Shown here one piece after another: positions 46,444 through 49,737 of a DNA stretch of 64,000 nucleotides. Positions within the stretch are counted from its first letter, which is position 1, and each line of letters starts with the position of its first letter. A program made the translations under genes and the position numbers. The DNA comes from Escherichia coli. Lineage in GTDB: Bacteria; Pseudomonadota; Gammaproteobacteria; Enterobacterales; Enterobacteriaceae. The notes beneath the pieces were generated by a model. That model had not been told where the DNA came from. It did no database searches and was given only the letters and a program-made list of their open reading frames with translations. The stretch lies in assembly GCF_017348835.2 (NCBI RefSeq), contig NZ_CP071375.1; one strand, written 5' to 3'.

Positions 46444-46726
46444 TAATTTGTCCTTTTCAGTCAGTGCAAAAGTCGAGTAAAAGGCATAACCTATCACTGT
46501 CATAGGTAAGAGCTTAGATCAGGTGATTGCCCTTTGTTTATGAGGGTGTTGTAATCCATGTCGTTGTTGCATTTGTAAGGGCAACACCTCAGCCTGCAGG
46601 CAGGCGCTGAAGATACCAAAGGGTAGTTCAGATTACACGGTCACCTGGAAAGGGGGCCATTTTACTTTTTATCGCCGCTGGCGGTGCAAAGTTCACAAAG
46701 TTGTCTTACGAAGGTTGTAAGGTAAA

Positions 46727-46814
46727 ACTTATCGATTTGATAATGGAAACGCATTAGCCGAATCGGCAAAAATTGGTTACCTTACATCTCATCGAAAACA
46801 CGGAGGAAGTATAG
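46727..46814. promoter_or_regulatory. ahpC promoter / OxyR-binding region (approximate)
   Basis: Position upstream of ahpC in the divergent dsbG-ahpC region, with GGAGGAAG SD at 46801-46808; OxyR assignment from prior knowledge of the ahpC promoter, motif not derived here. Confidence 0.45.
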
Positions 46815-47378
46815 ATGTCCTTGATTAACACCAAAATTAAACCTTTTAAAAACCAGGCATTCAAAAACGGCGAATTCATCGAAATCACCGAAAAAGATAC
46901 CGAAGGCCGCTGGAGCGTCTTCTTCTTCTACCCGGCTGACTTTACTTTCGTATGCCCGACCGAACTGGGTGACGTTGCTGACCACTACGCAGAACTGCAG
47001 AAACTGGGCGTAGACGTATACGCAGTATCTACCGATACTCACTTCACCCACAAAGCATGGCACAGCAGCTCTGAAACCATCGCTAAAATCAAATATGCGA
47101 TGATCGGCGACCCGACTGGCGCCCTGACCCGTAACTTCGACAACATGCGTGAAGATGAAGGTCTGGCTGACCGTGCGACCTTCGTTGTTGACCCGCAGGG
47201 TATCATCCAGGCAATCGAAGTTACCGCTGAAGGCATTGGCCGTGACGCGTCTGACCTGCTGCGTAAAATCAAAGCAGCACAGTACGTAGCTTCTCACCCA
47301 GGTGAAGTTTGCCCGGCTAAATGGAAAGAAGGTGAAGCAACTCTGGCTCCGTCTCTGGACCTGGTTGGTAAAATCTAA
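46815..47378 (+). CDS. ahpC: AhpC, alkyl hydroperoxide reductase peroxiredoxin
   Basis: 187-aa ORF; peroxidatic Cys motif FTFVCPTE; strong SD; highly expressed-type codon usage. Confidence 0.97.
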
Positions 47379-47517
47379 ATTTCCTTCGTCTTTCACGCCA
47401 TAGCGGCGTTGGCGTCGCCCGTTCACCCCGGTCACTTACTTATGTAAGCTCCCGGGGATTCACAGGCTAGCCGCCTTGCTCTGACGCGAAATACTTCGGA
47501 AATTCACCTAATTCTTC

Positions 47518-47540
47518 GGGTGCTGCGGCACCCGATTTTC
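47518..47540 (+). terminator. Hairpin plus U-rich tract in the ahpC-ahpF spacer (partial terminator/attenuator)
   Basis: GGGTGC-TGCG-GCACCC followed by GATTTTCTTCC, read directly. Confidence 0.5.
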
Positions 47541-47622
47541 TTCCCCGCACCATGATGCAAGCTGCATCCAGGTAGCCGCAGAGGCCGCTTGCATGATGAT
47601 GTTTAAAGCCCAGGAGATAAAC

Positions 47623-49188
47623 ATGCTCGACACAAATATGAAAACTCAACTCAAGGCTTACCTTGAGAAATTGACCAAGCCTGTTGAGTTAATTGCCACG
47701 CTGGATGACAGCGCTAAATCGGCAGAAATCAAGGAACTGTTGGCTGAAATCGCAGAACTGTCAGACAAAGTCACCTTTAAAGAAGATAACAGCTTGCCGG
47801 TGCGTAAGCCGTCTTTCCTGATCACCAACCCAGGTTCCAACCAGGGGCCACGTTTTGCAGGCTCCCCGCTGGGCCACGAGTTCACCTCGCTGGTACTGGC
47901 GTTACTGTGGACCGGTGGTCATCCGTCGAAAGAAGCGCAGTCTCTGCTGGAGCAGATTCGCCATATTGACGGTGATTTTGAATTCGAAACCTATTACTCG
48001 CTCTCTTGCCATAACTGCCCGGACGTGGTGCAGGCGCTGAACCTGATGAGCGTATTGAACCCGCGCATCAAGCACACTGCAATTGACGGCGGCACCTTCC
48101 AGAACGAGATCACTGATCGTAACGTGATGGGCGTTCCGGCAGTGTTCGTGAACGGGAAAGAGTTTGGTCAGGGCCGCATGACGTTGACTGAAATCGTTGC
48201 CAAAATTGATACGGGCGCGGAAAAACGTGCGGCAGAAGAGCTGAACAAGCGTGATGCTTATGACGTATTAATCGTTGGTTCCGGCCCGGCGGGTGCAGCG
48301 GCAGCAATTTACTCCGCACGTAAAGGCATCCGTACCGGTCTGATGGGCGAACGTTTTGGTGGTCAGATCCTCGATACCGTTGATATCGAAAACTACATTT
48401 CTGTACCGAAGACTGAAGGGCAGAAGTTGGCAGGCGCACTGAAAGTTCACGTTGATGAATACGACGTTGATGTGATCGACAGCCAGAGCGCCAGCAAACT
48501 GATCCCGGCAGCGGTTGAAGGTGGTCTACACCAGATTGAAACAGCTTCTGGCGCGGTACTGAAAGCACGCAGCATTATCGTGGCGACCGGTGCAAAATGG
48601 CGCAACATGAATGTTCCGGGCGAAGATCAGTATCGCACCAAAGGCGTGACCTACTGCCCGCACTGCGACGGTCCGCTGTTTAAAGGCAAACGCGTAGCGG
48701 TTATCGGCGGCGGTAACTCCGGCGTGGAAGCGGCAATCGACCTGGCGGGTATCGTTGAGCACGTAACGCTGCTGGAATTTGCGCCAGAAATGAAAGCCGA
48801 CCAGGTTCTGCAGGACAAACTGCGCAGCCTGAAAAACGTCGACATCATTCTGAATGCGCAAACTACGGAAGTGAAAGGCGACGGCAGCAAAGTCGTTGGT
48901 CTGGAATATCGTGATCGTGTCAGCGGCGATATTCACAACATCGAACTGGCCGGTATTTTCGTCCAGATTGGTCTGCTGCCGAACACCAACTGGCTGGAAG
49001 GCGCAGTCGAACGTAACCGCATGGGTGAGATTATCATTGATGCGAAATGCGAAACCAACGTCAAAGGCGTATTCGCAGCGGGTGACTGTACGACGGTTCC
49101 GTACAAGCAGATCATCATCGCCACTGGCGAAGGTGCCAAAGCCTCTCTGAGTGCTTTTGACTACCTGATTCGCACCAAAACTGCATAA
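47623..49188 (+). CDS. ahpF: AhpF, alkyl hydroperoxide reductase flavoprotein subunit
   Basis: ORF 47593-49188; start taken at [13 protein letters not shown] giving 521 aa; FAD motif [12 protein letters not shown], redox CPHCDG. Confidence 0.95.
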
Positions 49189-49217
49189 GAAGAAGTAAGA
49201 TTCACCTGCAATTGCTT

Positions 49218-49249
49218 AGCCGCCGGGGTCAAACCTGGCGGCTTTTTTA
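49218..49249 (+). terminator. Rho-independent terminator of ahpF
   Basis: AGCCGCC-N12-GGCGGCT followed by TTTTTT; a second GC-rich imperfect hairpin (49261-49288) with T-run on the minus strand probably terminates convergent uspG. Confidence 0.75.
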
Positions 49250-49308
49250 TGGCAATAAAAAGCCCCGCCGGGATGGCTCCGGGCAGGGCTGGAGACTTAT
49301 TCTGGCAA

Positions 49309-49737
49309 TTAACGCACAACCAGCACCGGCAGATTGGCGTGGCGGATCACGCTCGAGGCGTTAGAACCTAACAGATGGGTCGAAATCGATGGGTTGCGAG
49401 AACCGATAACTACAACATCAGCCCCCAGTTCTTCTGCCAACTCATTGACTTCATCCCGCACGCTACCAAAACGGACATGTTGTTTAATGCGGGAAGGATC
49501 GATGGTGAAGTGGCTGACCATCGTTTGCAGACGTTCTTCTGCTTCATGTTGCAGATGCTCTTCAAAACGACGCACATCAGCGGCAAAACGGTGCAGGCTC
49601 AGGCTGGCTGACCCGGGTAGTACGTGAAGTAGATGAATAACTCCGTCATCCTGAGCGAGGAATTCAGCGTGGCGAACAGCTTTGTCGCTCAATTCCATTT
49701 CAAATACATCAACTGGCATAATGATTGTCTTATACAT
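49309..49737 (-). CDS. uspG: UspG, universal stress protein G
   Basis: 142-aa ORF; Usp fold features; recognised by recall. Confidence 0.9.

Follow-up and report, generated by a model that had tools for sequence, protein, structure and literature searches.

The ahpC-ahpF spacer of Escherichia coli: an ERIC repeat, an intrinsic terminator and an RNase III hairpin in one intercistronic region

Background

In Escherichia coli, AhpC and AhpF rank among the most abundant proteins; they have an unequal working stoichiometry, AhpC being decameric and AhpF dimeric. Structured repeats are known from the intercistronic regions of operons, which can hold REP/BIME elements in the 3' UTR of the preceding gene, as between malE and malF. 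Another such repeat, the ERIC copy between ahpC and ahpF, presumably figures already in the lists of the early ERIC papers.

Apart from REP/BIME elements, three classes of described systems come closest to the region analyzed here. The first comprises the ERIC repeats of enterobacteria, also called IRU or RU-1, which are described in a review (PMC2229807) as a family of 127 bp with terminal inverted repeats and TA termini whose transcripts form long stem-loops; in Yersinia, according to the same review, ERICs change the stability of flanking transcripts via RNase E and in an orientation-dependent manner. The second consists of graded terminators within operons, such as the internal terminator of sdhCDAB-sucABCD that is discussed in Conway et al. 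2014 (PMC4161252). The third is made up of RNase III sites that stabilize the upstream message, for which Gordon et al. 2017 (PMC5371410) give pflB-pflA and ahpC-ahpF as examples. There, a new RNase III site is tabulated as 'Intergenic (ahpC-ahpF)' at NC_000913.3:639695 from reads mapped to that sequence, and is marked as verified ('Y'), the verification consisting of RNase III cleavage of the ahpFC RNA in vitro and of 5' RACE. The paper also reports an ahpC mRNA half-life of ~14 min in the wild type as opposed to ~6 min in the rnc mutant, with ahpF unchanged, and proposes that a protective 3' hairpin blocks exonucleases and that the arrangement has a role in subunit stoichiometry.

Results and discussion

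The window, that is, the whole stretch of 64,000 nucleotides of E. coli DNA that was analyzed (contig NZ_CP071375.1 of assembly GCF_017348835.2, one strand), contains the ahpCF operon, with the following gene-level features.

46815-47378, plus strand: ahpC, 187 aa (open reading frame list and RefSeq annotation of identical loci)
47376-47378, plus strand: ahpC stop codon TAA, whose last base opens the ERIC palindrome
47379-47622, plus strand: ahpC-ahpF spacer, 244 bp, from the ahpC stop to the ahpF ATG at 47623
47612-47616 and 47623-47625, plus strand: ahpF Shine-Dalgarno sequence AGGAG (from the sequence) and ATG (RefSeq start)
47623-49188, plus strand: ahpF, 521 aa (open reading frame list and RefSeq annotation; RefSeq start at MLDTN)

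Window coordinates are converted to those of K-12 MG1655 (NC_000913.3) by adding 592130, and the spacer differs from that of MG1655 by 2 bases, both within the ERIC module. For comparison across genera, the window was aligned with the 80 closest Enterobacteriaceae loci (81 sequences in all); variation within the species was surveyed in 5,426 complete E. coli genomes. For the complete spacer, the folding energy is -89.3 kcal/mol, the mean of shuffled sequences being -73.7 kcal/mol (z -3.13), and none of 200 shuffles reaches the value of the real sequence. A preliminary description of this DNA had presented the spacer as a structured region of 244 bp with three hairpins, and all three are indeed present at the places given. 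Neither the ERIC nor the RNase III site was recognized in that description.

The three hairpins are three separate, unrelated modules: an ERIC repeat, a terminator and an RNase III hairpin. Each of the three belongs to a well-known class, and for the terminator and the RNase III site there are published data at the exact positions. We hold with considerable confidence that the spacer combines three independent, already described modules of ahpCF, with termination and RNase III processing acting together. An Rfam scan of positions 46500-49500 (E <= 1) returned no family covering the terminator or the third hairpin.

Some features of the surroundings may be recorded here. In the dsbG-ahpC intergenic region, positions 46577-46670 (plus strand) match the Rfam family STnc70, an enterobacterial sRNA, with 44.1 bits against a gathering threshold of 40 and an E-value of 6e-7; a published Term-seq 3' end at K-12 position 638796 corresponds to window position 46666 and lies 149 nt ahead of the ahpC start codon. 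On the other side of the operon, a strong terminator-like hairpin followed by a T-run (49218-49243) lies after ahpF, within 49189-49250 on the plus strand, and the ahpF 3' UTR has been described as the source of an Hfq-associated sRNA (PMC7213987, PMC10703908).

The first module begins with the last base of the ahpC stop codon.

47378-47504, plus strand: ERIC (IRU) repeat, a 127-nt imperfect palindrome in the ahpC 3' UTR, upstream of the terminator
47420-47463, no strand assigned: ERIC core, two ERIC-PCR primer matches back to back, including the CCCCGG...CCGGGG hairpin

The terminal arms of the palindrome (47378-47404 and 47478-47504, 27 nt each) are 74% complementary, with further inner arms besides, and the element folds at -47.1 kcal/mol (z -3.8), an energy that none of 200 shuffles reaches. 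Using primer sequences taken from PMC4046986, the ERIC-2 primer is matched on the minus strand at 47420-47441 in 20 of its 22 bases (2 mismatches) and the ERIC-1R primer on the plus strand at 47442-47463 in 21 of 22 (1 mismatch), whereas 100 shuffled sequences yielded no primer match. Copies at ybiT, rpsB-tsf, ardC-mobH and ybhI-ybhJ align with 47378-47504 from end to end. The median number of places that the family occupies in an E. coli genome is 9 (range 2-15, counting detectable copies), and 32 of its 43,676 places across E. coli are plasmid-borne. One copy, in E. coli isolate 30602_6#35 (L008:401-501), lies inside a mobile element, flanked by the genes of an ArdC-family protein and of a MobH relaxase. 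Rfam, from which an ERIC model is absent, gave one weak, sub-threshold match on the element, to the Vibrio family V_AS5 (47382-47503, minus strand, E 0.04).

The element thus shares with the ERIC/IRU/RU-1 repeats its length of 127 nt, the imperfect palindrome with terminal inverted repeats, the primer-matching core, the location in a transcribed intergenic site, the dispersed occurrence (~9 copies per E. coli genome) and the existence of size variants with internal deletions. There is no essential difference between them and 47378-47504, although no clean TA target-site duplication can be seen here: the left-hand TA, within the TAA stop, abuts the element, and the next TA on the right is 5 nt away. 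Its placement between cistrons is of the same type as that of REP/BIME elements, but the window element is an ERIC and not a REP. The motifs CCCCGG (47426-47431) and CCGGGG (47452-47457), which form the inner part of a 14-nt inverted repeat, are present, and the hairpin that they make (47426-47457) is a mere tip of the 127-nt palindrome. We conclude that 47378-47504 is an ERIC repeat, a MITE-like element, and that CCCCGG/CCGGGG is not a dedicated regulatory hairpin, a misreading that recognition of the ERIC core prevents.

Within E. coli, the spacer is found in three forms.

244-bp spacer: full ERIC, 1,762 of 5,426 E. coli genomes
170-bp spacer: ERIC with a 74-bp internal deletion, 2,542 of 5,426 E. 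coli genomes
128-bp spacer: no recognizable ERIC, 1,112 of 5,426 E. coli genomes

The other 114 nt of the spacer are identical among the three. The 128-bp form is not a clean empty site, as it carries 14 nt, GTTCCGCAATCGCG (L003:587-600), where the window has ERIC plus TCACC over 47379-47509; these are loosely similar to the left end of ERIC (TTCC...TCGCG). By sequence likeness, this allele may be a further-deleted ERIC remnant rather than a site that was never occupied.

Across the 81 Enterobacteriaceae sequences, a full-length ERIC is found in the same position and orientation directly after the ahpC stop in ~37, representing many genera, and these elements are 75-95% identical to that of E. 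coli. The remainder comprises a few truncated ERICs, ~30 REP-like elements and ~10 empty slots. Among the genomes of Citrobacter, Enterobacter, Klebsiella pneumoniae and Salmonella arizonae, many have the REP-like element (GTAGGCCGGGTAAACG...GCCACCCGGCA) in place of the ERIC (aligned loci L013, L018, L020, L021, L033, L045-L048 and others). Because ERIC, a truncated ERIC, a REP-like element or nothing can occupy it across the 81 sequences, the site after ahpC is, on the evidence of the alignment, permissive for repeats and a hotspot for different repeat families.

It has to be considered whether the ERIC could nevertheless be a functional regulator, either as a hairpin abutting the stop codon that terminating ribosomes would open and that would modulate ahpC decay, or as a spacer between the ribosome and the terminator. 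The precedent of the Yersinia ERICs, with their orientation-dependent effect on the stability of flanking transcripts via RNase E (PMC2229807), speaks for such a role, as does the recurrence of the element in the same place and orientation in the ~37 of 81 genomes. So does the dependence of terminator efficiency on the distance from the stop codon that is reported in PMC4824070, this distance being 137 nt in the window and shorter in the alleles whose spacers are smaller by 74 bp or 116 bp. Against this, the intact element is missing in 67% of the complete E. coli genomes and any ERIC element in 20%, and other genera have a REP-like element or nothing in the slot, which suggests a tolerated passenger at a permissive site. 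A regulatory ERIC is thus a possibility that we consider doubtful, and the distribution is most simply read as that of an old, tolerated passenger that is dispensable for the operon.

Downstream of the ERIC lies the second module.

47516-47542, plus strand: intrinsic terminator, stem-loop 47516-47535 (8 bp, 6 of them G-C, tetraloop UGCG) and U-tract UUUUCUU at 47536-47542

In DNA letters, the stem-loop at 47516-47535 reads TCGGGTGC-TGCG-GCACCCGA and is followed by TTTTCTT (47536-47542); as RNA, UCGGGUGC-UGCG-GCACCCGA plus UUUUCUU was detected by a scan with a terminator consensus. It begins 137 nt past the ahpC stop codon, and the stem-loop has a folding energy of -16.6 kcal/mol (z -4.6). Compensatory changes are seen at 6 of the 8 stem pairs among the 81 aligned Enterobacteriaceae, the variants including GGGTGC/GCACCC, GGGCGC/GCGCCC and CAGGCGC/GCGCCTG. 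Paired cells make up 98.5% of the stem as compared with 26-45% in slid registers, and 73 cells are doubly changed as compared with 12.6 in shuffles. The U-tract is conserved directly after the covarying GC stem. Plus-strand Term-seq 3' ends of K-12 have been published in a supplementary table of Adams et al. 2021, at 639668 for two conditions and at 639670 for one, making three data sets; these are window positions 47538 and 47540, inside the U-tract. We conclude that 47516-47542 acts as an intrinsic terminator within ahpCF.

The proposal, made in the preliminary description, that partial termination at the GGGTGC/GCACCC hairpin contributes to the AhpC:AhpF ratio is supported by the covariation and by the mapped ends; a spacer devoid of 3' ends, named there as the observation that would speak against it, is at odds with the published ends at 47538 and 47540. 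This support does not extend to CCCCGG/CCGGGG, which is an ERIC core that is not intact in two thirds of E. coli genomes. A literature search turned up no published efficiency or read-through fraction for the ahpC-ahpF terminator, Gordon et al. 2017 being the only pertinent paper found, and the main text of Altuvia 2018 mentions neither ahpC nor ahpF. In common with graded intra-operon terminators such as that of sdhCDAB-sucABCD, the element combines a GC stem-loop and a U-tract between co-transcribed genes, has 3' ends in the U-tract and is preceded by the gene with the more abundant product. The difference is that here an RNase III hairpin follows 11 nt after the terminator.

47547-47602, plus strand: hairpin 3, RNase III substrate, 56 nt; outer stem 47551-47562 / 47587-47598
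47587-47601, plus strand: 3' arm of hairpin 3, GCTTGCATGATGATG, essentially invariant across genera, with three ATG triplets

The outer stem pairs CATGATGCAAGC (47551-47562) with GCTTGCATGATG (47587-47598), 11 of 12 positions being complementary, with one G.G mismatch. The hairpin folds at -23.0 kcal/mol (z -2.2) into helices of 3, 3, 8, 2, 2 and 2 bp that are broken by small internal loops. It forms in all 81 Enterobacteriaceae sequences, with minimum free energies of -11 to -28 kcal/mol, and, together with the leader, is found as a single copy at >=95% identity in 5,421 of the 5,426 E. coli genomes. A repeat-family origin was considered for hairpin 3 and rejected, since there is one copy per genome and the window holds no copies other than its own two arms.

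Position 639695 of the published RNase III site, placed by its tabulated coordinate, is window position 47565, on the 5' side of the upper stem. RNase III usually leaves a 2-nt stagger between its paired cuts. From a cut at 47565 and this stagger, we infer that the partner cut lies near 47586-47588 and that the ahpF leader is ~36-38 nt long. Hairpin 3 is thus the already published RNase III site, identical with the one that Gordon et al. 2017 (PMC5371410) place at 639695 and group with pflB-pflA. What is added here, beyond that work, is the conservation of the hairpin in 81 Enterobacteriaceae, its single-copy status and the invariance of its 3' arm, with no covariation.

The published cleavage also bears on the origin of the ends at 47538 and 47540, because Term-seq reports 3' ends whatever their origin, be it true termination or exonuclease trimming to a stable hairpin. 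In the main rival to termination, the GC hairpin would act mainly as a barrier to 3' exonucleases, most polymerases reading through, the RNA being cut by RNase III and the ends at 47538-47540 arising by trimming. The stabilization of ahpC mRNA by RNase III cleavage and the exonuclease-blocking 3' hairpin proposed by the authors of PMC5371410 are in keeping with this, and no 3' end at the RNase III site itself is tabulated in Adams et al. 2021, as would be expected after trimming. However, the hairpin has all the canonical features of a terminator, including the conserved U-tract directly after the covarying GC stem, and ahpC mRNA is fairly stable even without RNase III (~6 min; PMC5371410). 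We regard a mainly barrier-type hairpin as improbable; trimming and termination are not mutually exclusive.

In contrast to the terminator stem, hairpin 3 is backed by conservation and by the published cleavage and not by covariation, since compensatory changes are absent, among the 81 genomes, from both its outer and its inner helix. Substitutions in the 5' arm (T-to-C in 6 genomes, G-to-T in 9) are uncompensated. Entropy is zero or close to it in alignment columns 99-109 of the 3' arm (TTGCATGATGA) across the 81 Enterobacteriaceae, whereas the four-fold degenerate sites in the first 200 ahpF codons of these genomes average 1.13 bits, and each of the 43 varies. The conservation of hairpin 3 is not explained by pairing alone. 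Since the arm is invariant, its 5' partner changes without compensation and all 43 of these four-fold sites vary, the 3' arm seems to be constrained in its sequence and not in its pairing alone.

Several roles could account for this constraint: the arm could be a translational enhancer, the start of a mini-ORF, or a binding site for a protein or an sRNA that sets AhpF synthesis, and the sequence preferences of RNase III could also contribute. In the ATG-rich part of the arm, ATGATGATG opens a 4-codon mini-ORF, MM(M/T)(F/S)-stop, in 46 of the 81 Enterobacteriaceae, with the stop 11-17 nt (mostly 14-16) before the ahpF ATG; elsewhere, longer out-of-frame ORFs are found. In Escherichia only, ATGATGATG is in frame with ahpF, giving a 10-codon extension (47593-47622) and a mechanical ORF of 531 aa. 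A conserved mini-ORF or an N-terminal extension of AhpF was rejected as an interpretation of ATGATGATG, as length and frame vary and the ahpF frame is confined to Escherichia. We offer, as a tentative and rather unlikely proposal, that the 3' arm GCTTGCATGATGA (47587-47599) would be a sequence-specific signal in the liberated ahpF leader and that, separately, the ERIC alleles would vary the AhpC:AhpF ratio.

A conserved block of this kind could also be a DNA signal, namely an internal promoter from which a separate ahpF transcript would start. Conservation far above that of synonymous sites, and at the level of sequence rather than of pairing, is what such a signal would be expected to show. 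However, a sigma-70 scan of the spacer found no promoter-like site on the plus strand, the best hexamers identified by eye are poor, and a transcript that began past the block would have hardly any leader. Conway et al. 2014 (PMC4161252) give three promoters, all upstream of ahpC. An internal promoter at hairpin 3 is the least probable of the readings considered here, and we give it very little weight. TTGCAT/ATGCAA motifs were inspected by eye as sigma-54-like or LacI-family-like sites and rejected for their wrong spacing.

The remaining question is whether the long inverted repeat of hairpin 3 occludes the ahpF ribosome-binding site and represses AhpF translation, as the preliminary description had suggested. 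The hairpin is stable (-23 kcal/mol), conserved and close to the site, ending 10 nt before the Shine-Dalgarno sequence and 21 nt before the ahpF ATG, and in the minimum-free-energy fold of the E. coli sequence a weak A/U helix, AUGUUUA/UAAACAU, can bracket the Shine-Dalgarno sequence. Yet both the Shine-Dalgarno sequence and the AUG lie outside hairpin 3, and the leader folds no better than shuffled sequence (z 0.05 for 47585-47640 and z -1.06 for 47546-47640, neither significant). The A/U helix hinges on a 1-nt deletion specific to Escherichia and is not conserved. In addition, the half-life results in Gordon et al. 2017 (PMC5371410) show ahpF stability to be unchanged on loss of RNase III. 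The suggestion of occlusion is not borne out, and we consider it quite unlikely.

Taken with termination and RNase III processing as the preferred reading, the evidence is compatible with the following course of events. Transcripts from the ahpC promoters would traverse ahpC and then the ERIC, which would be co-transcribed as a long hairpin of the ahpC 3' UTR. A certain fraction of them would end in the U-tract of the terminator, where 3' ends are mapped, and yield an ahpC-only mRNA, while polymerases that read through would produce the ahpCF mRNA. This RNA is cut by RNase III in hairpin 3, at the published site, so that its ahpC and ahpF halves part. The ahpC half would then be trimmed back, presumably by exonucleases, to the terminator hairpin and be long-lived, in line with the published half-life effect; the ahpF half would begin some ~36-38 nt before the AUG, its exact 5' end following from the putative partner cut. 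The net outcome would be an ahpC message that is both more plentiful and longer-lived than the ahpF message, an excess that would fit a decameric AhpC and a dimeric AhpF if message levels carry over to protein stoichiometry.

Conclusions

The ahpC-ahpF spacer offers an example of a terminator and an RNase III site that can grade the expression of two genes, with components that are published or of textbook type. The ERIC that precedes them exists as a three-allele polymorphism in 5,426 genomes, which amounts to a natural experiment on the effects of ERICs on neighbouring mRNAs. Lineages of E. coli might differ in their AhpC:AhpF ratio according to which of the three alleles (244, 170 or 128 bp) they carry.
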